Position numbers and translations under genes: made by a program. A model generated the notes under the pieces. The model had not been told where the DNA came from and ran no database searches. It saw only the letters and a list, made by a program, of their open reading frames with translations. Shown here piece after piece: positions 34,681-51,492 of a stretch of DNA of 64,000 nt (positions are counted from its first letter, which is position 1; each line of letters begins with the position of its first letter). Location: assembly GCA_041497195.1 (NCBI GenBank), contig JBGQGB010000001.1, forward strand, positions 213,504-277,503, written 5' to 3'. This stretch comes from Candidatus Doudnabacteria bacterium. Its GTDB lineage: Bacteria > Patescibacteriota > Doudnabacteria > UBA920 > 2-01-FULL-46-14.

Positions 34681-36711
34681 TCAAAAACCTTTTAAACGAT
34701 AAATCTTCAGGGTGTTCAGGGTTTTTTCCAACTCGTAGTGTTGTTTTGCAAAATTCTCAAGATCAGCTATCCGGACGTCATAATTTTTGTAAAGAAAAAC
34801 GTGTTCGGGCTGCGAAGCAGCTAATTGTTCCGTCAGCGCTTTGACCTGGCTATGAAAGACGATTTGATAGTCATCATACACGCGGTATAACTTCTGGCCG
34901 TTTTGGGTACTATAGAAAAAATTTATCTTCCCCGCCATCAGCAGCAACTTTCCGTCGTCAGGATGGAATAGCGGTATGGCTTCTTCTGAGTAATGCTCCT
35001 TGATATATCGGGCATCTTCGTAAATCTGCTGGTCCTTTGGCGCGATTGCGGTCAAGCTTATTTTGGAATAATCGCGATAAGCAAACACTACCGGCAATTT
35101 GGCCAAGCTTAGTGTGGCAAAAAAAGCGAGAAACGCGCCCAGAGCTGCCGACATGAACCGTTTCCAAGTTTTTTGATCGGAAAACGCAAAATAGCGGTAA
35201 AACGCGGACCACAACAAAAGCAGCATGGACAAAGACGTTGCATTCAAATAACTCCAGGCAGAATTACCGACATAATAAGTCAAAGCAAAAATGCCGTAAA
35301 CGGTGAAAAAAACGGTAAGTAAATGTTCGGGGCGCCGGCGCCACAACCCCGTCGCTATCCAAACGGCAAAGCCCGAATAGACCAGCACGAAGATTTCAAA
35401 CAGGCCGACTTTCGGCATCGGGAGCTTGCCAAACCCCTGCTCAAATCCGGTCAAAACCAACCAGACGAATCTCCATTTCGGCCACTGATGATAGAGGAGC
35501 CGATTGAGGCCGCCAATCACCCCAAAAACTATGGCGATATAGCCCGCCTGTTCCAAACCGGCAATCAGTATTTTTCGAAGTTTCGGCCAAAACCGGGCGA
35601 CGCGAATGTGAACGTCATAGCCCAAGGTGGCAAACACTGCGATATTGACATAAATTCCCGTATCAACGTTCCAAAATAAAGCCAAAGCCGAGAAAAAAAG
35701 AAGCAATTGTCTCTTTCCTGTACTGGGAAATTTAACGTACCGGGAGATCAGCCAAGCTAATACTATGTAAAACCCCTGCCGGTATACCGTCTGGCCGGGA
35801 AAATCATACGGCGTGAGATAAGGATCAGTAAGGAGGAAAAAATTCACGACAACCGCGAGCCATGTCCCCACCAGAGCGAACAGATCTGAATTCATCCAGT
35901 TTTTCAAGGTCCGGTAAACCAAAACGAAAAAGGTAAAATACAATACCATCAGGATTACCGAGAAAGCCTGGTACGATATCGGCAGCAGAAATTTCATGAT
36001 TGCGGCCACCAAATAAGTGTTCAAGATCCCATAGATACCGACGGTTTCATACAGCAGGGGTTGGCCCCGCAGCATCAGATCGACGGGAGAGACTACCATG
36101 TTCGTATATCCTTCGGCAGAAGGAAAATTGGGATGAAAAACGATCAGGGCTAGAAAGACAAAAAAATAAGGGACAATTTTTTTCAGGCGCGGAGACTGGT
36201 TGAGGGTCTGTAACCAGAGGGTTTTACTTTGCCGCCAAAACACGACCGAAAATGCAAAAATTGCGGCCAAAAAGGATAGCCGGACGATGTAAATCCTTTT
36301 GGTGAACAAAAGCCAAGCCAAGTGCCAGAGGCTTCTTCTCTGAAAATATCCCGTCGCAAAAGCCCAGCTTGGAAGATGGACGCGAAAAACCAGCCTCGAC
36401 GCATAAACAATACCCGCCAGGACCGCAGTTCCGGCAACATACTGGAAAACTTTCGAATTGCGCAGAGAATAAAAAACCAAGGCCAGAAGCGGGATGACCG
36501 CATAGCTGAGAAAATAAAGGGGAATTTCGAACGGTTCGGGCAAGATGGGAAATCCCGGATAGGCGTCAACCATTTCAAAATTCCAAAACGTGAAGTGGTT
36601 CTGAAACACCCGGGACGCAATAAAATAGATTAGTACGCTTGGTACCAGCCACAGCGCGTAACTGGCGAAATCGAATGTTTTGAATGATTCGAAAAATTTT
36701 ATGGACTTCAT
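34681..36711 (-). CDS. large polytopic membrane protein (676 aa), GT-C-like candidate; paralog of 19559-21589
   Basis: Same length and shared blocks with the first copy. At least 12 TM helices. Confidence 0.45.
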   Translation of the reverse strand: MKSIKFFESFKTFDFASYALWLVPSVLIYFIASRVFQNHFTFWNFEMVDAYPGFPILPEPFEIPLYFLSYAVIPLLALVFYSLRNSKVFQYVAGTAVLAGIVYASRLVFRVHLPSWAFATGYFQRRSLWHLAWLLFTKRIYIVRLSFLAAIFAFSVVFWRQSKTLWLQTLNQSPRLKKIVPYFFVFLALIVFHPNFPSAEGYTNMVVSPVDLMLRGQPLLYETVGIYGILNTYLVAAIMKFLLPISYQAFSVILMVLYFTFFVLVYRTLKNWMNSDLFALVGTWLAVVVNFFLLTDPYLTPYDFPGQTVYRQGFYIVLAWLISRYVKFPSTGKRQLLLFFSALALFWNVDTGIYVNIAVFATLGYDVHIRVARFWPKLRKILIAGLEQAGYIAIVFGVIGGLNRLLYHQWPKWRFVWLVLTGFEQGFGKLPMPKVGLFEIFVLVYSGFAVWIATGLWRRRPEHLLTVFFTVYGIFALTYYVGNSAWSYLNATSLSMLLLLWSAFYRYFAFSDQKTWKRFMSAALGAFLAFFATLSLAKLPVVFAYRDYSKISLTAIAPKDQQIYEDARYIKEHYSEEAIPLFHPDDGKLLLMAGKINFFYSTQNGQKLYRVYDDYQIVFHSQVKALTEQLAASQPEHVFLYKNYDVRIADLENFAKQHYELEKTLNTLKIYRLKGF

Positions 36712-37334
36712 AAATCACCGCTATTTTTAGTCGGTTCTTGTCTTTTAAGCCTGGCCAAAACCGCTACCGCTTCTGTAGAAAACTTCTTTCCTTGTTTCAC
36801 TTTAAGGATATCGAAATATTCCCTAATCAAACCTAGGTGTTTGTTTAGAGGGCGAATAAATTTGCCCCGATCATGGGAAGTCAAAAATCTCCCGATGTAA
36901 TTGTCCGGGCTTTGCTCAATTGGATCAAACGCAACGAGATATCCGGAAGTACGTTTAGCTAAACTGGCTAGCAGATCACGGGCATCGGGATCGGAAATGT
37001 GATGAAGTAAATCAACTAGCAGGGCGATCTCAAAAGTTCGTCCCTGTAAATCTGCATCCTGAAGCTTCACACATTGGAATTTCTTCTTTTCAGTCCCGTA
37101 ATGTTTGCTCGCGTATTCAATATACCGGCAATCCATGTCAATACCCAAATATTCTCCATCGGTCAGAGCGGAATGTTGTCCCGTCCCGCAGCCCACGTCA
37201 AGCATCGACACCGAACGATCAATATCGAACTCTCTAACTATTGCGTCTACGCCCCTATAACTGCCGAAGCATAAATCCAAAAGTTTGCGGAAAAAATTCC
37301 AAACATAGACGTTGTCAAGTACATGCATTGGCAA
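36708..37334 (-). CDS. class I SAM-dependent methyltransferase
   Basis: MLDVGCGTGQHS. Shares an ATGA overlap with the downstream paralogous membrane protein. Confidence 0.65.
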   Translation of the reverse strand: MPMHVLDNVYVWNFFRKLLDLCFGSYRGVDAIVREFDIDRSVSMLDVGCGTGQHSALTDGEYLGIDMDCRYIEYASKHYGTEKKKFQCVKLQDADLQGRTFEIALLVDLLHHISDPDARDLLASLAKRTSGYLVAFDPIEQSPDNYIGRFLTSHDRGKFIRPLNKHLGLIREYFDILKVKQGKKFSTEAVAVLARLKRQEPTKNSGDL

Positions 37335-37337
37335 AGT

Positions 37338-38558
37338 TTAAAAATATTTAGCCAAAAAAAACTTGAGTTTTGATTCCAAATATTGAAGTTGCAAATCGGC
37401 TAACCCCTGATGGCACCCAACGACAAAAGCATTTCGCATAATGTATTCAGTGTTGGAAAAATTCCGCGAACCAATCTTTCTGGGAATTTCTCTGAATCCC
37501 GGCTGTTTAAGAATATCCCCGGTAAATACCGGGCGAGTCTGGATATTATTTGCTTCCAAATATTTTACAATCTCGAGGCGGGAAAAAGGGGCATTTTTTT
37601 TAATAATCAATGGGAAAGCCAGCCAAGCCGTATAACTTTTGGCGGTTTGGGCTGGTAGGATAAAATACCTTTCGTAACGCTTGAAAAAATTATAAAGCCG
37701 CCTAAAGTTTTTTTGCCTGATTTTCACGAAGCCCGGAAACTTCTTGAGTTGGACCAAAGCGAAAGCGGCAGAGATCTCAAGCGGCAAAAAATTGTATCCG
37801 ATTTCCGAAAAAATGAACTTGGCGTCATATGGTATGCCGGAAAGTTTGGTTCGAAACCTATTTTCCACAAGTTCGGAACTTTGTTTCTCTCCAAACAATG
37901 AAGATTGTCTACCCCAACCGCGCAAAACTAGCAGCCTTTTGTACCAACGCGGATCATTGACGCAAACCATCCCGCCCCCACCAGCACCGTTAATAATGTG
38001 CGAGCCATAAAAACTGGTCGTGGAAATGTCAGAATAGGCACCGCTCGGCTTGCCCACAAATCTGCCGCCCAAAGTATCGCAGGAGTCTTCAATGAACCAG
38101 AGCTTGTGTTTACGCGCAATCTGCTGGAGCATCTTTAAATTGGGAATATTGCCAAGCAGGGACGGAATCATCAGGGCGCGGGTACGTTTGGTGATATTTT
38201 TTTCTATCTGCTCGATATCGATCAGATAGGTTCCCAAGCTGACATCAATAAATACCGGCACGAGTCCTTTTTGCACTATTGGCGCGACAGTGGTGGCAAA
38301 AGTCAAAAGCGGAGTAATCACTTCACTTCCTTTGGGCAGATTCAGAATCTCCAACGCCAAAAGATTGGCTGACGAGCCCGAATTGACCATGACTCCATAT
38401 TTTTTCCCGAAAAGTCTGGCGATTCGGTTTTCAAATTCCTGAGTTTTATCACCCAGGGCCGTATTGCCTCTGAGCACTTTTACTACAGCCTCTATCTCTT
38501 CGGGGCCATGAACCGAGAGTGCGTACGGCACGGATACAGATTTTTTTAGTTTCAACAT
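37338..38558 (-). CDS. DegT/DnrJ/EryC1/StrS-family PLP-dependent sugar aminotransferase/dehydrase
   Basis: 406 aa. N-terminus ...HGPEEIEAVVKVL..GDKTQEFE..FGKKYGVMVNSGSSANLLAL. The Lys-containing region is conserved. Confidence 0.8.
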   Translation of the reverse strand: MLKLKKSVSVPYALSVHGPEEIEAVVKVLRGNTALGDKTQEFENRIARLFGKKYGVMVNSGSSANLLALEILNLPKGSEVITPLLTFATTVAPIVQKGLVPVFIDVSLGTYLIDIEQIEKNITKRTRALMIPSLLGNIPNLKMLQQIARKHKLWFIEDSCDTLGGRFVGKPSGAYSDISTTSFYGSHIINGAGGGGMVCVNDPRWYKRLLVLRGWGRQSSLFGEKQSSELVENRFRTKLSGIPYDAKFIFSEIGYNFLPLEISAAFALVQLKKFPGFVKIRQKNFRRLYNFFKRYERYFILPAQTAKSYTAWLAFPLIIKKNAPFSRLEIVKYLEANNIQTRPVFTGDILKQPGFREIPRKIGSRNFSNTEYIMRNAFVVGCHQGLADLQLQYLESKLKFFLAKYF

Positions 38559-38693: not shown

Positions 38694-39299
38694 TCAAAGC
38701 CGCAAATTCTCACGCTTGAGAAAGTACTCTACCCCTGCTGGGATAAGCTTCTCCAGGTGGTGTGGGCAAACGTTTGGCGGGAGTTCCTTCACAGGAAACC
38801 AGCCCGTGCCCTCACCTGGCTGGTCGACGGGATCCGTCTCGAAAAACACGGCTACCGGCATGTGACAATACCACCCGCGTTCCTCCTGTTGGAAAAACTC
38901 CTTCCCGTAAAGGACTGAAAACTTTGCAACCGGGGCCTTGAATTTCGCTTCGGCCACCCGTCGCACGACTACCGCGTAATCTTCCCCATTCTGAATGGCG
39001 CTCCCTCCCACCTCATACTGGTTAGGGTAAGCTTCGTTGGGGCCACGCAAACGCAACCAGACCTCGAGTTTTTGTGTCTTCTGATTGCGACGAACGCAGA
39101 CTCCCTCGACGGCAAGGTGTGGATCAAGCCTGTTCAGCTCGTTAAACAGCTTGGCGCCATAGGGCTGGTCGGCATCGATCAGAGACAAAACTTTCGCCGC
39201 AAACAGCCGGAGCCGCTCGTGGAAAGTCTCTTGTGCTGATGCAGGGTTAAACAGACTGTGGAATGCTTGCCAAATCACTTCCCATGCTTCTTGCAACAT
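38694..39299 (-). CDS. hypothetical protein (201 aa), GC about 53%
   Basis: Strong SD (AAGGAGGAGGAGAG). No family recognised. Confidence 0.4.
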   Translation of the reverse strand: MLQEAWEVIWQAFHSLFNPASAQETFHERLRLFAAKVLSLIDADQPYGAKLFNELNRLDPHLAVEGVCVRRNQKTQKLEVWLRLRGPNEAYPNQYEVGGSAIQNGEDYAVVVRRVAEAKFKAPVAKFSVLYGKEFFQQEERGWYCHMPVAVFFETDPVDQPGEGTGWFPVKELPPNVCPHHLEKLIPAGVEYFLKRENLRL

Positions 39300-39471: not shown

Positions 39472-39942
39472 CTATCTTTTCAGTTTCTTTCGGACTTTCT
39501 CCCAAACGTCTTTGTGTTCGTTGATTATAGCCCGCGGCATCTTGCCAAAAAACTTCCCATGTACGGGTTTCGTTTCGGTTTCACATAAAAAGACGAGAGA
39601 CACCGCATGGCCGCGTGGTCCACTCGTGTAATTCACTGGAAACAAAAATTTTGAGCGTACTACATCGACTCCAAGTTCTGTCAGCGCCGTCTGTTGAATC
39701 CGTTCCTCAAAAGTCTCGTTATACCGCAACAATCCCCCGGGAAAATGCCATCCTGTCCACCATTGATCGCGCCGCCACGTCAATAAAATCTGTTTCTTCG
39801 AGTTAACGACGACCAGTTCACACGCCACAAATGGAACAACTCTGACAAAACCGTTAAATACCGCGGGCGGCAACCCTTCGTGGGGATGGTCAATTTTCTT
39901 TAAAATTTTCAGCAACTGTCGGATCTCTTTGCTTCCTAACAT
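39472..39942 (-). CDS. NUDIX hydrolase
   Basis: The Nudix box PGGLLRYNETFEERIQQTALTELGV fits GX5EX7REUXEEXGU. Confidence 0.6.
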   Translation of the reverse strand: MLGSKEIRQLLKILKKIDHPHEGLPPAVFNGFVRVVPFVACELVVVNSKKQILLTWRRDQWWTGWHFPGGLLRYNETFEERIQQTALTELGVDVVRSKFLFPVNYTSGPRGHAVSLVFLCETETKPVHGKFFGKMPRAIINEHKDVWEKVRKKLKR

Positions 39943-39945: not shown

Positions 39946-40338
39946 CTACGTTTTGAAAGTCCAGTGTTTATGGGCGAAAAAAGAAAACAGGACCATCACC
40001 ACCAAAAGCACGGTCTGGGCCGCAATCGGACGCCACTTTACCCACTCCACGAGCACCACCAGCCCGCCCAGACCAATCAGGTACTGGACGGCGTAAACGG
40101 CAAAAAACTTCAGAATTTCTCCGAAACGCCGGCTGGCAATGCGAAAGGTAAAGTATTTATTCCACAAATAGCTGTTGGTCACGGCTAGCGCGAAAGACAA
40201 AACTGACGCCAGCACGTAGTGCAATTTTAAAAAAACGAACAGGACGAAAAAACCATAGGCCACGCCGGTATTGAGCGCTCCCACCAAAAGAAATCTCGAA
40301 AACGGAGAGTTATTAACCCGGCTCCACGGTCCGTTCAT
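39946..40338 (-). CDS. GtrA-family 4-TM protein (polyprenol-P-sugar flippase candidate)
   Basis: 130 aa, FLLVGALNTGVAYGFFVLFV..., GtrA-like topology. Adjacent to a GtrB-like GT2. Confidence 0.65.
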   Translation of the reverse strand: MNGPWSRVNNSPFSRFLLVGALNTGVAYGFFVLFVFLKLHYVLASVLSFALAVTNSYLWNKYFTFRIASRRFGEILKFFAVYAVQYLIGLGGLVVLVEWVKWRPIAAQTVLLVVMVLFSFFAHKHWTFKT

Positions 40339-41278
40339 GCTTGTTCTGCGTCACTACCTCTTTAACAATGTAATTGGGGCGGTTTTTGGTTTCCTCGAAA
40401 ATAATAGCTATGTACTTGCCAACTACACTGATAGCCAAAACTTGGATGCCACCGAAAAACATGATCCCTAAAAATAACGTGGCCGATCCTTGAATCGGGT
40501 TGCCGGCGACAAGAACCCAGGCGATGTAAATAATTATTGAAATCACCGACAAGAACACAAAAAATAAACCAAGGTAGGTGATGAAATCGAGTGGCACGTT
40601 GGAAAAAGCAACCAGACCAGATTCGGCCGATTTCAAATAATTGAAAAAACTGTAACTGGACTTTCCATATTTCCGGGCTTGCCGATCATAAGGAATGAAT
40701 GTCCGTCGAAACCCGGCCCAAGCCAAAAGTCCCCGGTGAAACCGGTGCCTTTCGGGCATTTGTATGACTTCTCGATTTACCCGAGCATCATAAAGTCCAA
40801 ACCCTGTTACTCCGCGAGGAATATCTATATACGAAGTTTCTTTTAGTAATTTGTAGAAGAACCGTCGAAACCATCCAATCAAAAAATTATCTTCTGTTTT
40901 TTGAGTCTGCCCCAAAACCAAATCGTAGCCTTCCTCCCATTTCTTAATGAACTGCGGGATCAAACTTGGCGGTTCCTGAAGATCGGCAGGCAATGGAATG
41001 ATCGCCTCTCCGTGGGCATGGCGCAGCCCGGCCAAACCCGAGGCCTCGGGGCCAAAATTACGCGACAGCAAAACCGCTACGACTTTCGGGTCCTCACGAG
41101 CCAGCTTTTTCATCAATGCTGCCGACTGATCCATGCTCCCATTGTCGACAAAAATGATTTCATGTTCGTAATTAGGTAAGGTCGCCAAAACTCTCTTTAC
41201 CTCTTTGTAAGTATTGTTGATGTTTTCTTCCTCGTTATAACAAGGAATAACAATAGATATCAATTTCCGTTGTGTCAT
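40313..41278 (-). CDS. GT2 polyprenol-phosphate glycosyltransferase (GtrB/CsbB-like, two C-terminal TM helices)
   Basis: ISIVIPCYNEEENI, VDNGSMD and a DxD-equivalent, with C-terminal TMs. The start is taken at the internal Met MTQRK. Confidence 0.75.
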   Translation of the reverse strand: MTQRKLISIVIPCYNEEENINNTYKEVKRVLATLPNYEHEIIFVDNGSMDQSAALMKKLAREDPKVVAVLLSRNFGPEASGLAGLRHAHGEAIIPLPADLQEPPSLIPQFIKKWEEGYDLVLGQTQKTEDNFLIGWFRRFFYKLLKETSYIDIPRGVTGFGLYDARVNREVIQMPERHRFHRGLLAWAGFRRTFIPYDRQARKYGKSSYSFFNYLKSAESGLVAFSNVPLDFITYLGLFFVFLSVISIIIYIAWVLVAGNPIQGSATLFLGIMFFGGIQVLAISVVGKYIAIIFEETKNRPNYIVKEVVTQNKHERTVEPG

Positions 41279-41282: not shown

Positions 41283-42905
41283 TTACTCTTTTTTCGGCGA
41301 CCACTTACCAAGCGGCATCTCCTTCGAATCGGTAAATATCTCGCAAAGCACGGGGCCGGAAGACCGCAGGGCCTTGCGGGTAACGTTTATCAGATCAGCC
41401 CGATCGGCAATTCGAAAATAGCGCATATTAAAAGCGGCGGCGATCTTTTTCATATCCGGAATCCCTACACCGCTTTTTATCCCTGCGCCGTAAATCCGAC
41501 CAAAGTAGTTAAGCTGCGTGCGCGAAATGGATAAATAACCGTCGTTATTCATCACAAATAATTTAATGGGGAGCTTATGATAACTGATTGTTTCCAATTC
41601 TTGCAAATTGAACATAAGCGAGCCTTCGCCATCCACGCAGACCACAGGTTTCTTATCGACTGCAAAACAAGTTCCCACAGCCGCCGGCAAGGCGTGACCC
41701 ATTGATCCCATGCCCAAATTGACAATCAGACGCTGATTCTTTTTCAACGCTAAGGTTTTAAATGCCGCAACCGAAGCCGATGGACCGTTACCTACAACAA
41801 TCGGCAATTTGGTATCTAAGTGATCAAAAAACTCATAGGAAGCGAGTTTTTTAGGCAGCTTGTATCGCTGGGGTTTTACTTGCACTGGCCATCTATGTAA
41901 AAGTAAAGGCTCTTTTAATAAGGCTCTTAAAAAATCTTTTATATCTGCCGCAACTGGCAGGTTCAAGCTTAAAGTTTTTTTATGCAGTTCGGCCGGATCA
42001 ATGTCTACCATAATCTGGTAAGCTTGCCTGGCAAAATATTCATAATCAAAGGAAACCTGCTGGATGCTCATACGCGTGCCCAAGATTAAAAGCAAATCAC
42101 ATTCCCCTACCGCTTGATTAGCCGTCTCCCCTCCAGCCATTCCCTGCAAGCCCAAAAAATAAGGATAAGCCTTGGTGACTAAGCCCAAACCACTAACGGA
42201 AACCACGGCATTAATTTTGGTTCTGGCTAAAAGCTTCTGGAGTTCCGATTCTGCGTGAGCCAACCTCACTCCGTTGCCAACCAATAACAAAGGATGTTTC
42301 GCTGCCCTCAACTTTTGGGCGACTTTTTTAATTAACTCAGCTGATACGACGTGTCTTAGTTTTGGCGGTCGAAACCCTTTTAATTTTTCCGGATTAATTT
42401 TCGTCCGTTGGATGTCCAAAGGAATATCCAACCAGACCGGGCCAGGCCTTCCATGGGTCGCAATATGCAGAGCCTTCTCCAGTTCGTAACGAATCAACCG
42501 GGGGTCGGTGATCATTACTATGTATTTAGTAACCGGCTGGGCAATCTTTTTGATATCAGCCTCCTGTTCGGCCAGGAGCCGCAAACCCCCACTGGCTTGG
42601 ACTTGAGTCCGGACCTGACCGCTCAAAATGATCATGGGTATAGAATCGGTCCAAGCACCAGCCACTCCATTTAGAGCATTGAGACTTGCTGGACCGCTGG
42701 TAATACAAATAGCGCCCATGCTTCCAGTCATGCGCGCGTAAGCCTCCGCGGCCATTGCGCAAGCTTGCTCGTGATGACAACACACGTAATTCATACCAAG
42801 CCGTCCAATACTGTCGTTCAGATACATGGCACTGCCACCAGTGACCATAAATATCGTCTTGACATGCTTTTTTATTTCTAGAATTACGTAATCGGACAAC
42901 AACAT
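41283..42905 (-). CDS. thiamine-pyrophosphate-dependent enzyme, acetolactate-synthase large-subunit-like (YerE-like branched-sugar synthase candidate)
   Basis: 540 aa, TPP N-, central and C-domains (GGSAMYLND...; GDG-like motif GMGSMGHALPAAVG; ...NNDGYLSI). Confidence 0.7.
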   Translation of the reverse strand: MLLSDYVILEIKKHVKTIFMVTGGSAMYLNDSIGRLGMNYVCCHHEQACAMAAEAYARMTGSMGAICITSGPASLNALNGVAGAWTDSIPMIILSGQVRTQVQASGGLRLLAEQEADIKKIAQPVTKYIVMITDPRLIRYELEKALHIATHGRPGPVWLDIPLDIQRTKINPEKLKGFRPPKLRHVVSAELIKKVAQKLRAAKHPLLLVGNGVRLAHAESELQKLLARTKINAVVSVSGLGLVTKAYPYFLGLQGMAGGETANQAVGECDLLLILGTRMSIQQVSFDYEYFARQAYQIMVDIDPAELHKKTLSLNLPVAADIKDFLRALLKEPLLLHRWPVQVKPQRYKLPKKLASYEFFDHLDTKLPIVVGNGPSASVAAFKTLALKKNQRLIVNLGMGSMGHALPAAVGTCFAVDKKPVVCVDGEGSLMFNLQELETISYHKLPIKLFVMNNDGYLSISRTQLNYFGRIYGAGIKSGVGIPDMKKIAAAFNMRYFRIADRADLINVTRKALRSSGPVLCEIFTDSKEMPLGKWSPKKE

Positions 42906-42933
42906 AAAAAAATAAATTATCGGATTTACTGAT

Positions 42934-43866
42934 CTAATTCTTAGGCCTGGTCTGAGCGCGGACTTGAACTAGATACTCATCATTAATTATTGCTTCCCTG
43001 TCTAATTGAGAGGCTAGACCTTTGTAGTAATCGAATAAACTCTTGATCCCGTCCCTGATACCAGTAAATTGGACTCCGGGTAATTCTTGTCGCAACCGGG
43101 CGTTGCTGCCAGTGTATTCATAGCTGTTTCCCTGATTCAAGGTCGAGACCTTGGATTGAAACTCGGAAATGCCATTGATCATCTGACAAATGTCCACCAA
43201 TTCCACTGTTTGGTCTGGGACCACGTTGTAACTTTTATAATGCGCTTTGTGTGTGAGAAAATACTCTACAACCGGCCCAAGATCGGTAACGTATAGATAA
43301 CTAAATTTGGCGTTTCGGTTGACTTTCAGGTCCTGCTTGAGAAGATTTTTTACAATACTGTTAGAAATAAAGGAAAAAAGATAATTTTCCCCAGGCCCGT
43401 AAATACCAAATAGGCGCAAGCAAATCAGATTTTCTGCTCGCTCAATATATTGAGAGATAGCGTATTTATAAAATCCGTAGTCGTCTTTAGGAACGTACTT
43501 TCCAAACTCCTCCTCACCAACCTTCACGAGAGGGCGAAATTTGCCATACTCCGCGCCCGAACCGAGAACAATGAACTTTTCCAAGTGATCTAAGTTTGCC
43601 GCCAGGTTAAAAAAAATTCGCAAATTGCGTTCCACCATTTCGTAGGACTCAGATGACTTCCCCGGTTTTTGGTGAGCACAGTGCACAACAGCGGCGATCT
43701 GGTTTACGGCTATGTAATCTACAACTGCTTGCGCATCAGTCAACTCTAGTTCATCGTGTCGCGGCGCAAAAATTTTATAGCTCTGCTCCAAATAGCGCTT
43801 TAAGTATCCTCCAATAAACCCGCTTCCACCGGTAACGATAATATTCGTCTTTTTGGATGAAATCAT
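42934..43866 (-). CDS. NAD(P)-dependent SDR epimerase/reductase (dTDP-4-dehydrorhamnose-reductase/YerF-like)
   Basis: IIVTGGSGFIGGYL Rossmann motif, YxxxK (YKYAISQYIE). The start is taken at MISSKK. Confidence 0.6.
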   Translation of the reverse strand: MISSKKTNIIVTGGSGFIGGYLKRYLEQSYKIFAPRHDELELTDAQAVVDYIAVNQIAAVVHCAHQKPGKSSESYEMVERNLRIFFNLAANLDHLEKFIVLGSGAEYGKFRPLVKVGEEEFGKYVPKDDYGFYKYAISQYIERAENLICLRLFGIYGPGENYLFSFISNSIVKNLLKQDLKVNRNAKFSYLYVTDLGPVVEYFLTHKAHYKSYNVVPDQTVELVDICQMINGISEFQSKVSTLNQGNSYEYTGSNARLRQELPGVQFTGIRDGIKSLFDYYKGLASQLDREAIINDEYLVQVRAQTRPKN

Positions 43867-44041
43867 ATATTTTATTTGCGACGCTGCGCAAGCACGTGTC
43901 ACCAGACTTCTTTTCTCCCTGCATTATAGAATAATCGTCTGAATTTGGAAAGGTGCTCTCGTCAGCTGAATTCTGGGTTTGGTAGTTGATTTTTTACGAC
44001 AAATCTTTTAAAATATGCGTAGATGCCAAATTTAAAAAACG

Positions 44042-45043
44042 ATGAATCACTACGACAACAAAGCCATTCTCATCACCGGCGGGACCGGATCATTTGGTAA
44101 AAATTTTACCAAGTTCCTTCTGAAAAATCCACTCGTAAAACGAGTCACAATCTTCAGTCGTGACGAGTTCAAGCAGCACTACATGCAAAAGGAGCTCACT
44201 GACCCTCGACTGCGTTTTTTTATCGGCGACGTGCGTGACCTGCCTAGACTAGAACGCGCTTTTCAAGGAGTGGATATCGTTATTCACGCGGCCGCTCTCA
44301 AACATATTCCCGCCCTCGAATACAATCCTTTTGAGGCAGTAAAAACTAATATCATGGGGACTCAAAATGTCATTGAAGCTGCCATCGATCAAAAAGTTGC
44401 TCAGGTACTCTTGATTTCGACTGATAAAGCCGCTCAACCAACTAATTTGTATGGCGCCACCAAACTCTGCGCGGAAAAACTATTCGTATCCGGCAACTCC
44501 TACACCCGCGGCAAAACTACTTTTAGCGCCGTAAGATACGGCAACGTCATAGGAAGTCGTGGCAGTATTGTCGAAATGTTATTAGAAAACAAAGGCAGCG
44601 GCAAAGTCCCAATTACCGATCTGGAAATGACCAGATTTTGGATTACTTTTGCACAAAGTTTTCAACTCGTGACTTTTGCCTTAGAAAATATGGAGGGAGG
44701 CGAAATTTTCGTCCCCAAAATTCCCAGCATGAAATTGATTGATCTTTTTAATATTTTGGCTCCTGGGGTTGAAAAAGAAGTTATCGGAATTAGGCCGGGG
44801 GAAAAACTGCATGAAGTACTGCTGACCGAGCATGAATCGAGACATACCATTGAACTTTCTGACTATTTTGTCATCTTACCGGAATTCACGCACTTTAGCG
44901 GGGAGAGAGGACTTTACGGTAAATACAAAGAGCGGGGGCAAAAACTCGATTCAAAATTCTCTTTTGTGAGCCATACAAATGAAAAATGGCTGACGTCTGA
45001 AGAACTGATATTGATTTTAAAAGAAGCTAGCCTGGAATTATGA
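44042..45043 (+). CDS. pseB: UDP-N-acetylglucosamine 4,6-dehydratase (inverting), PseB/FlaA1/CapD-like
   Basis: ILITGGTGSFGKNF, RVTIFSRDEFKQ, FIGDVRD. Confidence 0.8.
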   Translation: MNHYDNKAILITGGTGSFGKNFTKFLLKNPLVKRVTIFSRDEFKQHYMQKELTDPRLRFFIGDVRDLPRLERAFQGVDIVIHAAALKHIPALEYNPFEAVKTNIMGTQNVIEAAIDQKVAQVLLISTDKAAQPTNLYGATKLCAEKLFVSGNSYTRGKTTFSAVRYGNVIGSRGSIVEMLLENKGSGKVPITDLEMTRFWITFAQSFQLVTFALENMEGGEIFVPKIPSMKLIDLFNILAPGVEKEVIGIRPGEKLHEVLLTEHESRHTIELSDYFVILPEFTHFSGERGLYGKYKERGQKLDSKFSFVSHTNEKWLTSEELILILKEASLEL

Positions 45044-46146
45044 TTCCCTATGGTCACCAAACTGTCGATAAGCTGGACATCCAAGCGGTTAAAAAAGTTT
45101 TAGAATCGGACTATCTGACGACCGGGCCGAAAGTAGTAGAATTTGAATCAGCTGCGAGTAAACTAATAGGAACAAAGTACGCTGTAGCCGTAGCAAACGG
45201 CACTGCGGCTTTACATTTATCCTATTTGGCTGCCGGACTGGGTCCGGGGGATGAAGTCATTACTAGCCCAAACACTTTTGTCGCAACTACTAACATGCTT
45301 TTAGCGGTCGGGGCTAAACCGGTTTTCTGCGACATCCGCACGGATACTCACAATATAGACGAGGATAAAATCGAAAAACTAATCAATCGTAAGACCCGCG
45401 CCATCGTTCCGATGCATTTTGCCGGACATCCGTGCGAGATGGATAAAATTTGGAGATTGGCAAAAAAAAATAAGCTTTTGGTGATTGAAGACGCGGCCCA
45501 CGCTTTTGGAGCAAAATACCGCAATCGCTATATCGGAGGCGGCAAGAGCGACTTAACGACGTTTAGTTTTCATCCTGTCAAATCGATAACCACTGGCGAA
45601 GGCGGTCTGATAGTGACCAACAATCCAAAATTGCACGTAAAACTAAAACTTTTACGCAATCACGGCATAAAAAAAGATAAAAACGGTTTTAATGTGATGA
45701 CCGTTCTGGGCTACAATTTCCGCCTGACCGAGCTACAAGCAGCTTTGGGACTGAGTCAACTGAGCAAACTAAAAAAATTCCTAAACTTGCGCCACCAAAT
45801 GGCGAAATTGTACCGAAATAATTTGAAGCGTCTCCCACAAATTGCGCTACCGGTGGAACACCAGGATTGTTACAGCGCCTGGCACATCTATGTTATTAAT
45901 CTAAAAAATCCGAAACATCGGCTACCTCTTTACCGGCACTTACTCAAAAATGGCATCGGTGCCAACTTCCATTACCCTGCCGTCTATAAGCATCCTTACT
46001 ACCGAAAACTAAATTTGACGGCCTCCTGTCCAGTAGCAGATAACTATAGCGCATCGGCTATAACTTTACCCTTATTCCCTGAACTATCTTCCACTGAAGT
46101 AAAATTTATCTGCAACAAAATTTCAGAATATTTTCAAGCTTTATAA
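45040..46146 (+). CDS. pseC: DegT-family aminotransferase, PseC-like (UDP-4-amino-4,6-dideoxy sugar transaminase)
   Basis: IPYGHQTVDKLDIQAVKKVLESDYLTTGPKVVEFE. The Lys region FSFHPVKSITTGEGG. ATGA overlap with pseB. Confidence 0.75.
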   Translation: MIPYGHQTVDKLDIQAVKKVLESDYLTTGPKVVEFESAASKLIGTKYAVAVANGTAALHLSYLAAGLGPGDEVITSPNTFVATTNMLLAVGAKPVFCDIRTDTHNIDEDKIEKLINRKTRAIVPMHFAGHPCEMDKIWRLAKKNKLLVIEDAAHAFGAKYRNRYIGGGKSDLTTFSFHPVKSITTGEGGLIVTNNPKLHVKLKLLRNHGIKKDKNGFNVMTVLGYNFRLTELQAALGLSQLSKLKKFLNLRHQMAKLYRNNLKRLPQIALPVEHQDCYSAWHIYVINLKNPKHRLPLYRHLLKNGIGANFHYPAVYKHPYYRKLNLTASCPVADNYSASAITLPLFPELSSTEVKFICNKISEYFQAL

Positions 46147-46154
46147 CTCTTTGC

Positions 46155-46772
46155 ATGGCCAAGGAAAAAACCGCTATTATCATTTTGGGAGGAGGTTTGA
46201 AAAGGAATAAAAATGGAAGCTGGCGAACAGCCAATTATGGCAAAGCAGGCGACAAATTCGGCATGACCGGGGACCGCTTGCGGATAATCGCCGGCGCATA
46301 TTTGGCTCAAGACCACGGCGAATACCTTGTTCTTGCGGCGGGCGGGCGGGGCCAATATAAAAATATCCCCGGGTCTCCTAATATTTCTAGGGTAATTAAA
46401 AATGAGCTTCTAGAACTAGGGGTCCCTAAAAAACAAATTCTGGAAGAGAGCAAGTCAGATACGACTTACCGGCAGCTGCAGAATGTCACCAGATTAGTTC
46501 GCAAGCTGCGAGTTATTAAAGTTTTTATCCTAACCAACCAATGGCATATTCCGCGAATTCTGGCTTTACTAAAACATAACCCTGGGCTACGTAAACTCGC
46601 CGGATACGAGCCAGAACTGCTCTCAGCGGAAACCATTGTGTTAAAATATGATCGGAAAAAATGGAGAAAAATCATTCAAACAGCCCGTTCCAGCAAAGAG
46701 TTTAAAAAACGTGTGAAGCTTGAAATGAATGGCATTAAAGCTATTAAAAATCAAACCTACTTTTACAAATAA
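46155..46772 (+). CDS. DUF218 (YdcF/ElyC/SanA-like) domain protein
   Basis: AIIILGGG...LVLAAGGRG...SKSDTTYRQL pattern. Confidence 0.5.
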   Translation: MAKEKTAIIILGGGLKRNKNGSWRTANYGKAGDKFGMTGDRLRIIAGAYLAQDHGEYLVLAAGGRGQYKNIPGSPNISRVIKNELLELGVPKKQILEESKSDTTYRQLQNVTRLVRKLRVIKVFILTNQWHIPRILALLKHNPGLRKLAGYEPELLSAETIVLKYDRKKWRKIIQTARSSKEFKKRVKLEMNGIKAIKNQTYFYK

Positions 46773-46775
46773 TAT

Positions 46776-47858
46776 ATGAGCCGGAAAATAACAATTCAAA
46801 CACCCAAAGGGAAACGCCACATTGGCCCTAACGAACCGGTTTTTATTGTCGCTGAAATGTCTGGCAATCATAATCAGGATATCAACCGAGCGTTTGCGAT
46901 TATTGATGCGGCAGCAGAAGCGGGCGCCGATGCCGTCAAATTGCAGACGTATACCGCTGATACTTTGACTATAAATTCGGATAAAAAATGGTTCCGGGTC
47001 GAAGTTAACAAAGCATGGAAAGGACGGACTTTGTACCAATTATACCAGGAGGCCCATACGCCCTGGGATTGGCAACCCAAACTAAAAAAATATGCGGAAA
47101 GCAAAGGCCTGGTCTTGTTTTCGACACCTTTTGACGAAACCTCGGTAGATTTCTTGGAGAGATTGGATGTTCAACTCTATAAAATTGCCTCTTTTGAAAA
47201 CGGCGATTTAGAATTGTTACAAAAAATTGGCCAAACGAAAAAACCAGTAATCATATCGCGTGGCATGAGTTCGATCGAGGATTTAAAGCTCTCCCTCCGG
47301 ACGCTCAGATCGGCTGGTGCTCCGGAAATTGCCGTACTGCACTGCATCAGTTCCTACCCCGCAACCCCTGATCAGATGAATTTGGCAACGATTCCCGACA
47401 TCGCCAAACGTTTCAAAGTCATATCGGGATTGTCTGATCACACCCTCGGCATTAATGTGGCTATAGGTGCCGTAGCTCTGGGGGCATCCATCATAGAGAA
47501 ACATTTTACGCTCAAACGATCGGGCGGAGGGGTGGATGCCGAGTTTTCCCTCGAACCGCATGAGCTAAAAAAGCTGGTGCAAGCCATACGAGAAACAGAA
47601 ATAGCCATCGGCAAGCCCACTTACGAAATAGAATCTAAAGAGGCCGAAAATCTAGTCTTCCGCCGCTCATTATTTATCGTAAAAAACATCAAGGCCGGAG
47701 AAAAACTGACTTCAAAAAACGTTAGATCAATTCGTCCGGGATACGGGCTTCCGCCTAAATATCTAAAGAGAATTTTGGGAAAAACCGTAAAAAAAAATTT
47801 AGATCGAGGAACTCCGCTGTCTTGGAGTTTAATAAATTCGGGAAGCAATGTTGATTAA
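46776..47858 (+). CDS. pseI: NeuB-family nonulosonic acid synthase (pseudaminic/legionaminic/sialic acid synthase) with C-terminal SAF domain
   Basis: IVAEMSGNHNQDINRAFAIIDAAAEAGADAVKLQTY and a C-terminal antifreeze-like domain. Confidence 0.8.
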   Translation: MSRKITIQTPKGKRHIGPNEPVFIVAEMSGNHNQDINRAFAIIDAAAEAGADAVKLQTYTADTLTINSDKKWFRVEVNKAWKGRTLYQLYQEAHTPWDWQPKLKKYAESKGLVLFSTPFDETSVDFLERLDVQLYKIASFENGDLELLQKIGQTKKPVIISRGMSSIEDLKLSLRTLRSAGAPEIAVLHCISSYPATPDQMNLATIPDIAKRFKVISGLSDHTLGINVAIGAVALGASIIEKHFTLKRSGGGVDAEFSLEPHELKKLVQAIRETEIAIGKPTYEIESKEAENLVFRRSLFIVKNIKAGEKLTSKNVRSIRPGYGLPPKYLKRILGKTVKKNLDRGTPLSWSLINSGSNVD

Positions 47859-48516
47859 TATAGTCACTGACAATAAAAAAAGCTGGTTTTACAGCAAAGT
47901 TATAAGACTGGCCAAACGGATCAGAGCCCTCAGCCACCGTGTTAAAATATTATCTGATGCCGCAAAATTGCCGAGTCGCTCGGATATTACATTTTTTTTA
48001 AGCTACGAAAACTACATTCCCCGCAAAGTCCGCTACCAAAGCCGTCATAATATCGTGATTCACGCCAGTGATCTGCCACGAGGCCGCGGCATGTCCCCGG
48101 CTACATGGCAAATTGTAGCTGGGCAAAAAACGATCCCGGTTACGTTATTTGAGGTTGCCGACGGTTTTGACTCGGGGGATTTCTACCTAAAAGACAAATT
48201 TCATCTAGACGGGACAGAATTGATAGAGGAGTGGCGGGAAAAACTTTACCTATGCATGGAGAGAATGATTTTGAAATTTGTAAATAATATTAACAACCTG
48301 GAACCTCTGAAACAACGGGGAAAAATAAGCGTCTATCCACGTCGGACTTTCGAAAACAGCAAGCTTGATATCAACAAGTCGCTAAAATCGCAGTTCAACC
48401 TTCTGAGAGTGACAGACAACGAAAGGTACCCCGCCTTTTTCAACCACCGCGGTAACAAATATATTTTGAAGGTTTATAAAAAATCGGCAAATCACAAAGG
48501 TAATAAAGAAAAATAG
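47848..48516 (+). CDS. formyltransferase-family protein (Fmt/PurN N-domain-like; sugar N-formyltransferase candidate)
   Basis: HASDLPRGRGMSPATWQIVAGQK contains the conserved Asn/His/Asp catalytic-region pattern of formyltransferases. 222 aa. Confidence 0.6.
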   Translation: MLINIVTDNKKSWFYSKVIRLAKRIRALSHRVKILSDAAKLPSRSDITFFLSYENYIPRKVRYQSRHNIVIHASDLPRGRGMSPATWQIVAGQKTIPVTLFEVADGFDSGDFYLKDKFHLDGTELIEEWREKLYLCMERMILKFVNNINNLEPLKQRGKISVYPRRTFENSKLDINKSLKSQFNLLRVTDNERYPAFFNHRGNKYILKVYKKSANHKGNKEK

Positions 48517-49687: not shown

Positions 49688-50662
49688 CTATTTATTTGGA
49701 GTTTCTTCAAAATATTTTTTATACCAAATGTAAGTTTCCTTAACCCCTTCTTCGAAACTGTATTTCGGCTCCCAAGCCAAAAGCCGTCGCGCTTTCTCAT
49801 TGCTAATGCTTTGCTCCTGAATTTCATTTTTATGATTATTCAAGACTCGGTACTGACAAGTTTGTCCTAAAATTGAGGAAATTTTTTCGATCATTGCTTT
49901 TACGGAAAAATTGGAGTTCGCGCTAAAATTGAATGCCTCACCGGCAATCTTATCAATTTTCTCAGCCAATAATACATACCCCTCCACTACGTCTTTGACG
50001 TAAAGATAGTCCCGTGTAAAATTTCCGTCACTTCTGACTTCTAAAACCTTTTGGTTTATGACGGCATCCATGATCCCCGGGATCAAACGACTAAAGTTTA
50101 GGTCTCCCGGGCCGAAAATATTTCCAAACCTGCTCACGGCAACTGGTAACCCATAAGTTTTATAATAAGAAAGAGCGATCAGGTCGGCACTCGATTTGGA
50201 AACTTCATAAGGATGATCGCCCGCGAGTTTTTGAACCTCAGTAGCCTTCAGGCAGTCTTTGCCGTAAGCCTTATCACTTGACGCCACGATGACCGCTTTT
50301 ATATAAGGCGAGCGGCGCGCCGCTTCCAAAATATGCACGGTGCCCATGACGTTCGTTAAAAAAGTCTCATACGGATTGACGTAAGCGGCTGTAACCGTAG
50401 ACTGAGCGGCCACATGAAAAATATATTCGATTTCGTATTTGGTGACTACGTCTATGACCCGTCGAAAATCGGTTATGTCGCACCACGCGTTCACAACCTT
50501 TGTCCCTAAGCTGCGACCAGCAAAATAGGATTGCGGATTATGAGACCGGGTGGTGATGTGGACCTTGGCACCCCGGGCAACTAAGCTTTCCGTCAAATGT
50601 CCGCCGACTAGCCCGGTACCACCCGTAACCAAAACCCTTTTTTTTGTCAGTGCTTGCATCAT
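49688..50662 (-). CDS. rfbG: CDP-glucose 4,6-dehydratase-like SDR
   Basis: VLVTGGTGLVGGHL, YEVSKSSAD (YxxxK). Lies directly downstream of the cytidylyltransferase. Confidence 0.7.
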   Translation of the reverse strand: MMQALTKKRVLVTGGTGLVGGHLTESLVARGAKVHITTRSHNPQSYFAGRSLGTKVVNAWCDITDFRRVIDVVTKYEIEYIFHVAAQSTVTAAYVNPYETFLTNVMGTVHILEAARRSPYIKAVIVASSDKAYGKDCLKATEVQKLAGDHPYEVSKSSADLIALSYYKTYGLPVAVSRFGNIFGPGDLNFSRLIPGIMDAVINQKVLEVRSDGNFTRDYLYVKDVVEGYVLLAEKIDKIAGEAFNFSANSNFSVKAMIEKISSILGQTCQYRVLNNHKNEIQEQSISNEKARRLLAWEPKYSFEEGVKETYIWYKKYFEETPNK

Positions 50663-50664: not shown

Positions 50665-51492
50665 CTATTTTTCATCCTTCCAGACTTTCCAAAAAGGTTC
50701 ATGTGCCCACTGCGAATTCAATTCTTCCATATCCCGATGGGTATCCATACACTTCCAACCCCCAGGGTGACTATACATGGACAATTGTTTAATTTCCGAC
50801 AACGGAACAAATACCTCTTCGATCATACTGTTGAGTTGTACGAAATCGAAAACTTCCTTTTTAAAAACCATAAAACCGCCATTAATATAATCTTGCCCTG
50901 TGCCCGCACGCGAATTTTGTAATTTTTTTGCATTTTCACTTAGACTGACAACCCCGGATTGGTGAAATCCCGTGACCTTTTGCCGGCTGCCGTCAAGCAA
51001 AATAACTCCAAAACGAGTCAAAAGGCGAACCCCGGTAATCGTGCCGATAGTATTTTGCTCTTTATGAAACTTCAAAAGTTCAATCAGGTTGACGTCGCCT
51101 ACACCGTCGCCGTAGGTGACCATAAAATTTTCGTCCCCGTCCAAATAAGGCGCAACGCGGCGTAATCGTTCTCCTGTCAGGGTATCTTGTCCGGTATCGA
51201 CGAATGTAACCTTAAAACCGTCGCCATTATCATTATGAAAGACTAATTTGTTTGTCTCGGTATTTAAAGAAAAATCATTCGCATAAATCCGCTGCCTTAA
51301 GAAATAATCCTTGATCATATCCCCCTTATACCCCAAACATAAAATAAAATCTTTGTAGCCATAATGAGAATAAATTTTCATAATATGCCAAAGAATCGGT
51401 CTTCCTCCGATTTCTACCAAGGGTTTGGGTTTAAATTCAGTTTCTTCGCGCAGGCGAGTGCCCTTGCCTCCGCACAAAATAACGACTTTCAT
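50665..51492 (-). CDS. rfbF: glucose-1-phosphate cytidylyltransferase
   Basis: MKVVILCGGKGTRLREETEFKPKPLVEIGGRPILWHIMKIYSHYGYKDFILCLGYKG. Confidence 0.85.
   Translation of the reverse strand: MKVVILCGGKGTRLREETEFKPKPLVEIGGRPILWHIMKIYSHYGYKDFILCLGYKGDMIKDYFLRQRIYANDFSLNTETNKLVFHNDNGDGFKVTFVDTGQDTLTGERLRRVAPYLDGDENFMVTYGDGVGDVNLIELLKFHKEQNTIGTITGVRLLTRFGVILLDGSRQKVTGFHQSGVVSLSENAKKLQNSRAGTGQDYINGGFMVFKKEVFDFVQLNSMIEEVFVPLSEIKQLSMYSHPGGWKCMDTHRDMEELNSQWAHEPFWKVWKDEK

Follow-up and report, generated by a model that had tools for sequence, protein, structure and literature searches.

The question raised by this locus is whether a protein that carries the name of an acetolactate synthase large subunit makes acetolactate or, instead, adds a carbon branch to a nucleotide sugar. 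The locus lies in a 64-kb stretch of DNA from a Candidatus Doudnabacteria bacterium (the whole stretch analyzed, hereafter the window; positions of open reading frames, ORFs, are window coordinates), and the protein is a thiamine diphosphate (ThDP)-dependent enzyme of 540 amino acids (aa), encoded with an ATG start at 41283–42905 on the minus strand. Its gene is directly downstream of a gene for a short-chain dehydrogenase/reductase (SDR) of 310 aa (42934–43866, minus strand), the start of which, inside an ORF of 42934–43902, agrees with the Joint Genome Institute (JGI) gene call on the source contig (a 364-kb metagenome contig), and it is followed directly by a gene for a family 2 glycosyltransferase (GT2; 40313–41278). 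A first-pass annotation of the window had put a 540-aa ThDP enzyme, an SDR, and a flanking GtrB-like GT2 at these places, and all three genes were found there; it had read the first two as a YerE/YerF-like module for a sugar with a two-carbon branch. The whole minus-strand array spans 43866 to 34681, and its products are, from first to last, the SDR, the ThDP enzyme, the GT2, a GtrA protein, a NUDIX protein, a 201-aa protein, a protein of the DegT family, a methyltransferase, and a protein of 676 aa. An identical ThDP protein is encoded on contigs of three independent assemblies; therefore, the protein is not an assembly artifact. We consider it fairly probable that it is a YerE-type ThDP carboligase, probably containing flavin adenine dinucleotide (FAD), that would act in a cytidine diphosphate (CDP)-sugar pathway joined to lipid-carrier delivery to the cell surface.

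Relationship of the ThDP enzyme to YerE-like enzymes and acetolactate synthases

It was found that the protein has the Pfam domains TPP_enzyme_N, M, and C (E values of 2e-30 to 2e-32) and that its Glu46, in an HHEQ motif, occupies the position of the catalytic Glu in two YerE-like enzymes, JanthE and PpYerE, and in acetohydroxyacid synthase (AHAS). The top NCBIfam names were all AHAS large subunit, and the JGI label likewise; however, the score against the biosynthetic AHAS equivalog TIGR00118 was 329 bits, compared to a cut-off of 538, and it was below the cut-off of every other AHAS model as well. When PDB sequences were ranked, the first was 8rph (319 bits), followed by 5ahk (234 bits), which we take to be PpYerE, the structure of which was reportedly published in ChemBioChem in 2018, then E. 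coli AHAS I at 211 bits and plant AHAS at about 196 bits. Pairwise identity was 35% with JanthE, 34% with PpYerE, 29% with E. coli AHAS I, and 29–30% with AHAS overall, and real IlvB and IlvG proteins aligned over the full length at 29–33%. Entry 8rph is JanthE, a characterized YerE-like enzyme (PMC12188165), and a review states that a structure of PpYerE has been solved.

A neighbor-joining (NJ) tree with 100 bootstraps was made from the window protein, the homologs with inspected gene context, five more top homologs (context uninspected), JanthE, PpYerE, AHAS, and distant ThDP enzymes as outgroups. The AHAS set consisted of four ilvB or ilvG products with adjoining ilvN, ilvM, ilvC, or ilvD genes and two further AHAS, a plant enzyme included; references were partly rebuilt from printed alignments, and the YerE of Yersinia (YpYerE) was absent. 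Some of the outgroups came from a contig scan with the ThDP protein, in which the useful relatives were those of an Oscillospiraceae metagenome-assembled genome (MAG) and Christensenella tenuis, the other 28 matches being 23–37% identical ThDP enzymes of other families. The window protein, its homologs, JanthE, and PpYerE formed one clade with a bootstrap value of 98, and IlvB, IlvG, and plant AHAS formed a separate clade with a value of 100, so that the protein falls outside the housekeeping IlvB clade; the first-pass annotation had proposed this comparison.

The two clades also differ in signature motifs, the YerE-like enzymes having HHEQ, LRxxxxQE, P(L/M)D, and R-x-x-(I/V)-x-Q where AHAS have RHEQ, IGTDAFQE, PKD, and RFDDR, respectively. 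The window enzyme has HHEQ, LRLLAEQE, PLD, and RMSIQQ and is thus on the YerE side at each column compared. With YerE and the YerE-like enzymes JanthE, PpYerE, ErwE, and MMAR_2332 it has in common a three-domain ThDP fold and the motifs of the FAD region, and with JanthE and PpYerE a clade apart from AHAS, although it is 34–35% identical to these two and has a shorter C terminus (540 aa, compared to 588 in the PpYerE chain and 619 in the JanthE chain). With IlvB, IlvG, and IlvI it shares the superfamily, the domain order, and the FAD-region motifs at the 29–33% identity given above, whereas those proteins have other active-site signatures, a separate clade, and a small subunit and ilv neighbors.

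The protein could, in principle, be a genuine biosynthetic AHAS of the IlvB/IlvG/IlvI type that lies by chance in a sugar island, which would account for the NCBIfam names and JGI annotation, the full-length similarity to IlvB and IlvG, and the retention of the FAD-region motifs as in AHAS. We regard this as extremely improbable, because the protein scores far under every AHAS equivalog cut-off, is outside the AHAS clade with its 100% support, and lacks the RHEQ, IGTDAFQE, PKD, and RFDDR signatures. In addition, as the first-pass annotation had stated, ilv neighbors were not seen: there was no ilvN or ilvM, ilvC, or ilvD gene among the scanned window ORFs (at least 120 aa; five ORFs of 96–279 aa, shorter or overlapping, were left out of the Pfam scan). 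All eight of the related loci described below have a sugar 3-dehydratase gene adjoining, and the host appears to be a bacterium of the candidate phyla radiation (CPR), the genomes of which rarely encode amino-acid biosynthesis. Taken together, these comparisons indicate that the protein is most likely a YerE-type carboligase and not a housekeeping acetolactate synthase.

The cut-offs, the clade, and the signatures argue strongly against the name 'acetolactate synthase large subunit' for the 540-aa protein. YerE-like enzymes are already an established class, to which the window protein adds another example; a published survey of gene clusters is reported to predict more than 200 such enzymes, which are wanted in biocatalysis for chiral tertiary alcohols.

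Cofactor-binding sites of the ThDP enzyme

The ThDP motif of the window enzyme is G426-E427-G428-X24-N453-N454, in which the spacing and the NN pair are canonical. The E427 position is Asp in 123 of the 124 aligned sequences and Glu in the window protein alone; its codon is GAA (41625–41627), one base from an Asp codon. A unique Glu at the Mg2+-binding Asp, a single base change away, is what might be seen if the gene were a decaying or catalytically impaired copy. We think this very improbable, since the ORF is intact and of full length, the other cofactor and catalytic motifs are conserved, its tree branch does not exceed those of its neighbors in length, and the sequence was recovered from three assemblies; moreover, an Asp-to-Glu change retains the carboxylate, and JanthE, which has CDG in place of GDG, shows that the motif is tolerant of change. 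Because the rest of the protein is conserved and the branch is not elongated, the GEG motif reads as a probable functional variant, analogous to the CDG of JanthE.

With respect to FAD, the first-pass annotation had taken loss of the FAD site to be typical of YerE, and this was wrong. YerE is called a 'thiamine pyrophosphate-dependent flavoprotein' in the title of its publication, and the legend of a figure of the JanthE active site has FAD beside ThDP (PMC12188165). The window protein keeps the FAD-region motifs: PLLLVGNG, DLLLILGTR, and VDID of its middle domain are common to the FAD-containing JanthE and AHAS, and FAD binding is thus predicted as likely.

The predicted 3-dehydratase and CDP-sugar genes

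The strongest evidence for the YerE-type reading, missed in the first-pass annotation, comes from the DegT-family gene at 37338–38558 (minus strand), the E1-like product of which is a predicted pyridoxamine phosphate (PMP)-dependent nucleoside diphosphate (NDP)-4-keto-6-deoxyhexose 3-dehydratase that would supply the 4-keto-3,6-dideoxy acceptor needed by YerE. Its best PDB matches were Yersinia E1 (CDP-4-keto-6-deoxyglucose 3-dehydrase; 3bcx, 242 bits) and ColD (196 bits), and it scored 354 bits with NCBIfam RfbH, compared to a cut-off of 423. The sequence FYGSH aligns with FYPAH(220) of E1, so that its His matches His220 of E1; the PseC protein of the window has the usual Lys there. A His in place of the Lys that binds pyridoxal phosphate defines the PMP-dependent 3-dehydratases (PMC8987622). 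A role of the DegT-family protein as an aminotransferase acting on the branch was considered and rejected, the residue at the Schiff-base position being His and not Lys.

The window dehydratase therefore shares with E1 (DdhC/RfbH/AscC) the DegT fold, PMP, and the His in place of the Schiff-base Lys, but it does not have the four-Cys [2Fe-2S] motif of E1 and SpnQ: three of the four cysteines are missing, with WGRQSSLFGEKQSSELVENRF in place of WGRDC-YCAPGCDNTC and one Cys of EDCC left. Because of these three missing cysteines, the dehydratase is, as judged from its residues, ColD-like in cofactor content. In ColD, PMP is regenerated with glutamate and E3 is not needed (PMC8987622). An E3/DdhD-like reductase was not found among all of the scanned window ORFs, which is consistent with an Fe-S-free dehydratase and which we do not count against the pathway, although in both respects, the missing E3 (DdhD) and the missing Fe-S cluster motif, the window differs from the Yersinia pathway. 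An Fe-S-free dehydratase is also present in the related locus L005 and in the Parcubacteria locus L037, and the seven other ThDP-linked orthologs retain the cysteines.

The CDP-glucose synthase and dehydratase genes (rfbF/rfbG) that the first-pass annotation had placed in the same island have counterparts there, although both score below the NCBIfam equivalog cut-offs. The product of an RfbF/DdhA-like glucose-1-phosphate cytidylyltransferase gene (50665–51492, minus strand) scored 264 bits with G1P_cyt_trans, the cut-off being 300, and matched PDB entry 1tzf at 203 bits, the next match being at 46 bits, which makes its identity clear. The product of an RfbG/DdhB-like NDP-glucose 4,6-dehydratase gene (49688–50662, minus strand) scored about 211–212 bits with CDP_4_6_dhtase, the cut-off being 278, and in the PDB it matched dTDP-glucose dehydratase at 143 bits and CDP-glucose dehydratase at 134.5 bits. 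The two genes are about 7 kb from the ThDP array, past a divergent pseudaminic acid (Pse) operon. According to the literature, YerE has been shown, and ErwE proposed, to act on CDP-4-keto-3,6-dideoxyglucose, with an NAD(P)H reductase acting next. The YerE systems have a 4,6-dehydratase and a 3-dehydratase nearby and an adjoining gene for an NAD(P)-type reductase, as does the window.

Directly upstream of the rfbF-like gene and on the same strand are genes for an FAD oxidoreductase of the GMC family and for a protein of 341 aa that matched no family (51534–53991), which may provide further sugar-tailoring steps.

Related loci

We compared eight related loci (L004, L005/L038, L006, L007, L008, L039, L040, and L041), the ThDP homologs of which are 40–49% identical to the window enzyme. 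A His-type 3-dehydratase gene is near the ThDP gene in all eight, and all eight have a GT2 of about 310–337 aa, which the window GT2 matched at 31–61% identity in L004–L008 and L038 and which was recognized in L039 and L040 by Pfam label and length alone. In five of the eight, rfbF/rfbG-like genes are in the cluster, as identified by sequence match (L007, L008, and L038) or by Pfam family and gene size (L039 and L041); the gene for the RfbF ortholog immediately precedes those for the dehydratase and the ThDP enzyme in the first three, and there are NTP_transferase genes of the same size in the other two. A large membrane protein also recurs, of the PMT_2 family in L006, L039, and L040 and of the family of the 676-aa protein in L005/L038.

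The uncultivated L038/L005 encodes counterparts of RfbF (42% identity), RfbG (43%), the SDR (48%), the ThDP enzyme (49%), the GT2 (61%), GtrA (53%), the NUDIX protein (53%), the methyltransferase (50%), the dehydratase (74%), and the 676-aa protein (43–45%). The gene order is rfbF-rfbG-(741 aa)-E1-ThDP-HpcH aldolase-HAD-SDR-methyltransferase-GT2 in L008 (Christensenella tenuis) and SDR-rfbF-E1-ThDP-SDR-GT2 in L007 (the Oscillospiraceae MAG). By Pfam family and gene size, it is rfbF-rfbG-E1-SDR-methyltransferase-ThDP-NeuB-GT2-PMT_2 in L039 (a 5.4-Mb contig) and ThDP-GT2-E1-PMT_2 in L040 (a metagenome). The Parcubacteria MAG locus L037 has several of the island genes at 36–61% identity. This recurrent cassette is the neighborhood to be expected, from its predicted functions, for an enzyme that accepts an NDP-4-keto-3,6-dideoxyhexose. 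The tree, the signatures, and the 3-dehydratase context thus sustain the YerE-like part of the module proposed in the first-pass annotation, in which the two-carbon branch and the YerF-like reductase are possibilities.

The branch donor and the Pse operon

Divergent from the ThDP array, on the plus strand, is an operon (44042–48516) for PseB, PseC, a DUF218 protein, PseI, and a formyltransferase-like protein. PseB, PseC, and PseI, at 447, 434, and 473 bits, respectively, are each above the NCBIfam equivalog cut-offs; they are accompanied by the DUF218 protein and the truncated formyltransferase-like protein and not by PseH, PseG, and PseF, and none of these three was recognized among the window ORFs scanned. 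It is speculative whether the operon represents a separate nonulosonic-acid pathway or the source of an alpha-keto-acid donor for the ThDP enzyme.

A two-carbon branch is unproven in view of the genes beside the ThDP gene in the relatives and of PseI next door in the window. An HpcH/HpaI aldolase gene directly follows the ThDP gene in L008 and L041; a NeuB homolog gene adjoins it in L039, with no PseB, PseC, or CMP-synthetase gene within the ±8 kb shown; there are NeuB-cupin fusions in L004 and L006; and HAD or Cof phosphatase genes flank the ThDP gene in L004, L006, L008, and L040. Aldolase or NeuB genes are thus near the ThDP gene in five relatives (L004, L006, L008, L039, and L041). The aldolase-ThDP arrangement is that of ErwI/ErwE and MMAR_2331/2332, which are described as long-branch systems, and by analogy with ErwE and MMAR_2332 these neighbors point to long hydroxy-keto-acid donors.

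If so, a YerE-type enzyme would use a long, hydroxylated alpha-keto acid in place of pyruvate and produce a higher-carbon branched sugar of the erwiniose or caryophyllose type instead of one of the yersiniose type with its two-carbon branch, and the donor in the window could derive from the neighboring PseB-PseC-PseI genes. For the window we think this unlikely on balance, though a serious possibility. The aldolase, NeuB, and phosphatase genes of the relatives argue for it, and, as no PseF, PseG, or PseH is recognizable in the window, the Pse product is perhaps not CMP-activated locally. However, PseF, PseG, and PseH may sit elsewhere on the 364-kb contig, PseB, PseC, and PseI pass the cut-offs for ordinary pseudaminic acid synthesis, and the window array has no aldolase gene; the support is all from gene neighborhood, and no ThDP enzyme is known that has a nonulosonic acid as its donor.

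The proximity of the Pse operon also bears on a different explanation, in which the ThDP enzyme has a non-sugar substrate and forms or decarboxylates a small keto acid as the source of an acyl or hydroxyalkyl group, for example for N-acylation in the pseudaminic-acid pathway, with no C-branching of a sugar. The gene is a divergent neighbor of a Pse operon without a recognizable PseH acyltransferase, and NeuB genes recur near its relatives; however, the invariant partner in all eight loci is the 3-dehydratase and not NeuB, the rfbF-rfbG-E1-ThDP order is complete in the Firmicute loci, where Pse genes are absent, and the protein groups with YerE-like enzymes that accept ketones. We consider this explanation improbable and retain the YerE-type carboligase acting on a CDP-sugar.

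The SDR, NUDIX, and small genes

The SDR is of the extended type, with Pfam Epimerase (9e-27) and RmlD_sub_bind matches and the motifs TGGSGFIGG and YxxxK, and its PDB matches were weak (RmlD, GDP-fucose synthase (Fcl), and Rmd ketoreductases). On this sequence basis, it is a candidate either for an NAD(P)H ketoreductase of the branch carbonyl, in a YerF-like role, or for an Fcl/RmlD-like 4-reductase. Orthologs are present in L038 (48% identity), L004, L006, and L040, accompanied each time by a NUDIX gene, so that the SDR and NUDIX pair is found in every locus of the subgroup with short (540–561 aa) ThDP enzymes (the window, L004, L006, L038, and L040). The window SDR and the SDR encoded just after the ThDP enzyme in the Firmicute loci belong to different subfamilies.

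The NUDIX hydrolase gene (39472–39942, minus strand; 156 aa, Pfam NUDIX 1e-9) encodes a protein with a weak match to GDP-mannose mannosyl hydrolase that is conserved in L038/L005, L004, L006, and L040. The fcl-gmm gene pair is known in E. coli, and the SDR and NUDIX genes resemble that arrangement; by analogy with Gmm beside Fcl, the NUDIX protein may be a nucleotide-sugar pyrophosphatase. The 201-aa protein (38694–39299, minus strand) had no Pfam or NCBIfam match; L005 encodes a weak homolog at the syntenic position, flanked by the NUDIX gene and the dehydratase gene. The gene for an S-adenosylmethionine-dependent methyltransferase (36708–37334, minus strand; 208 aa, Pfam Methyltransf_25/11/12) has an ortholog (50% identity) directly upstream of the gene for the 676-aa homolog in L005 and L038, and from its family the enzyme probably tailors the sugar.

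The three best promoter-like sites (10–11 of 12 positions) are located exactly in three intergenic gaps, at 39392–39364, 38617–38590, and 43951–43923, and there is a 12-bp hairpin (39448–39421) after the NUDIX gene, although the total counts of promoters and terminators were in no excess over the shuffled expectation. The sites suggest three putative transcription units, namely SDR to NUDIX, the 201-aa gene, and dehydratase to the 676-aa protein gene.

A probable lipid-carrier delivery module

The gene following the ThDP gene (40313–41278, minus strand; 321 aa, Pfam Glycos_transf_2) encodes a predicted polyprenyl-phosphate GT2 of the GtrB/ArnC/PgfS type. The best NCBIfam match was PgfS (265 bits), with ArnC at 151 bits, and in the PDB the GT2 matched GtrB (5ekp) at 222–223 bits over nearly the full length and ArnC at 134–138 bits, as well as dolichol-phosphate mannose synthase. 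The next gene (39946–40338, minus strand) encodes a small membrane protein of the GtrA family (Pfam GtrA_DPMS_TM, 3e-26), 53% identical to its ortholog in L038, which from its family is the presumed flippase partner for a lipid-linked sugar.

The last gene of the array (34681–36711, minus strand) encodes the 676-aa polytopic membrane protein, which had no match in Pfam, NCBIfam, or PDB sequence searches and had nine detectable homologs in 5.8 billion proteins. An AlphaFold2 model made from an 11-sequence alignment (pLDDT 77, pTM 0.81) was compared to the PDB with Foldseek, and 21 of the top 24 matches were glycosyltransferases of the GT-C fold (STT3, AglB, PglB, DPY19, AftA, ALG9/3, and Emb; TM-scores 0.26–0.46), the remaining three being subunit U of the glycosylphosphatidylinositol transamidase. 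The residues E59-P60-x-E62 are invariant in the first loop of the family. As modeled, the protein presumably takes over a sugar carried by polyprenyl phosphate and passes it to an acceptor at the cell surface.

The GT2, the GtrA protein, and the GT-C-fold protein therefore point to polyprenyl-phosphate delivery outside the membrane, a route that the first-pass annotation had not noted. The known GtrA/GtrB/GtrC, ArnC/ArnE-F/ArnT, and PgfS/PgfM systems likewise combine a GT2 bearing membrane helices at its C terminus with a protein of the GtrA family and a large polytopic protein of the GT-C fold; however, they carry glucose, 4-amino-4-deoxyarabinose (Ara4N), or N-acetylglucosamine, whereas the sugar of the window would be a CDP-derived, C-branched dideoxyhexose, and the GT-C-fold protein of the window, unlike their components, belongs to an unannotated family. 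The window also differs from the YerE system of Yersinia, where the sugar is built into a cytoplasmic O-unit, in being linked to the GT2, GtrA, and GT-C-fold genes.

The window contains a second gene for a 676-aa protein (19559–21589), 28% identical to the first, with a GT-C-like predicted fold and no Pfam family. It is adjoined by a half-size EamA (ArnE/F-like) gene at 19200–19562.

Host and surface target

The PilB protein of the window is 78–83% identical to Candidatus Doudnabacteria proteins, and its further named matches (64–68%) are from Doudnabacteria or the Patescibacteria group; the named homologs of the 676-aa protein are from Parcubacteria and Patescibacteria. Such bacteria are not known to have an outer membrane, and, because of this, a classical lipopolysaccharide (LPS) O-antigen like that of Yersinia is unlikely as the surface glycan, a point absent from the first-pass annotation. 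NCBI lists Doudnabacteria as a candidate phylum. The known YerE-type systems are from proteobacteria and mycobacteria, whereas the host here is a candidate-phylum bacterium, and a literature search on glycosylation in Patescibacteria returned nothing relevant.

Genes for type IV pili (PilM/N/O, PilB, PilC, and a pilin-like protein) occupy the 7482–17748 stretch and are adjoined by genes for an O-antigen-ligase/tetratricopeptide-repeat fusion (15298–17748) and a WbaP-type initiating transferase (17814–19193). Glycosylation of pilin or of a surface protein is a possible target of the island.

Two other sets of sugar genes were seen. Genes at 28666–29919 and 5483–6121 encode an NDP-hexose C-methyltransferase (Methyltransf_13/14) and an NDP-hexose 2,3-dehydratase of half length; they suggest additional deoxy or C-methyl-branched sugars in the island. 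An ADP-heptose-type set (53954–58264) comprises genes for a GT9 heptosyltransferase, for an SDR of the epimerase family that may be the heptose 6-epimerase, and for two fusion proteins, one of a cytidylyltransferase with HAD and one of a PfkB kinase with a cupin, and it is unexpected in an apparent candidate-phylum bacterium without LPS.

Discussion

From the protein families, the clade, the diagnostic residues, and the gene neighborhood, which were observed directly, we infer the following pathway with all of its catalysis, its donor, the nucleotide that is carried throughout, and its acceptor. The RfbF-like enzyme would make CDP-glucose, which the RfbG-like enzyme would convert to the 4-keto-6-deoxy sugar. 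The His-type PMP dehydratase would then remove the 3-OH to give CDP-4-keto-3,6-dideoxyhexose, in the style of ColD and without E3, because it lacks the Fe-S cluster. The ThDP enzyme would decarboxylate an alpha-keto acid, by default pyruvate and possibly a longer hydroxy-keto acid, and add the acyl anion to C4, forming a C-branched tertiary alcohol; the adjoining SDR would probably reduce the branch carbonyl, and tailoring of the sugar by the methyltransferase is possible. The GtrB/ArnC-type GT2 would put the finished sugar on polyprenyl phosphate, GtrA would assist in the flip of the lipid-linked sugar, and the 676-aa GT-C-fold protein would transfer it to a surface glycan or protein of the Doudnabacteria cell.

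Several points weigh against this interpretation. A tblastn search of plasmids with the ThDP enzyme returned genuine ilvB or ilvG exclusively (up to 260 bits), and some genuine IlvB score as high as PpYerE (260 compared to about 231–234 bits); by similarity alone, the margin of YerE-like enzymes over AHAS is modest and does not decide the identity of the protein. The tree has the caveats of the NJ method, the absence of the Yersinia YerE, and reference sequences that were partly reconstructed. The Glu in place of the Asp that anchors Mg2+ and ThDP could lower or abolish cofactor binding. The rfbF/rfbG genes are split off by the Pse operon as well as being under their equivalog cut-offs, and the SDR, being of another subfamily and in the company of a NUDIX gene, is possibly not the enzyme that reduces the branch. 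The assignment of the 676-aa protein to the GT-C fold leans on moderate TM-scores of about 0.4 for a model from 11 sequences. Finally, all of the catalysis has been deduced from sequence.

What appears less ordinary than the YerE-type assignment, as read from the genes, is the coupling to a Gtr/Arn-type module, the Fe-S-free E1-like dehydratase, the GEG motif, and the candidate-phylum host. These features could be parts of one streamlined route, in which an Fe-S-free dehydratase independent of E3 and a GEG-type ThDP enzyme that takes a long ulosonic or hydroxy-keto donor in place of pyruvate, possibly one made by PseB, PseC, and PseI, yield a higher-carbon C-branched sugar that is exported on polyprenyl phosphate via an unannotated GT-C family and decorates pili, an S-layer, or wall polymers. 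We find this combination distinctly doubtful; if it were true, YerE-type chemistry would gain a delivery route and a class of donor that are both new.

For annotation, 'acetolactate synthase large subunit' is a clear misnomer here, and, for biocatalysis, the clade is a source of variants that are compact (540 aa) and have an unusual cofactor motif, GEG. The recurrent cassette of cytidylyltransferase, 4,6-dehydratase, 3-dehydratase, ThDP enzyme, GtrB-like GT2, and a membrane protein of the GT-C fold or the PMT_2 type suggests, from its gene content, that branched sugars may be delivered by a polyprenyl-phosphate and GT-C route. If the assignment of the 540-aa protein as a YerE-type carboligase is true, YerE-type C-branching would reach beyond the lipopolysaccharides and lipooligosaccharides of proteobacteria and mycobacteria into an uncultivated candidate-phylum lineage.

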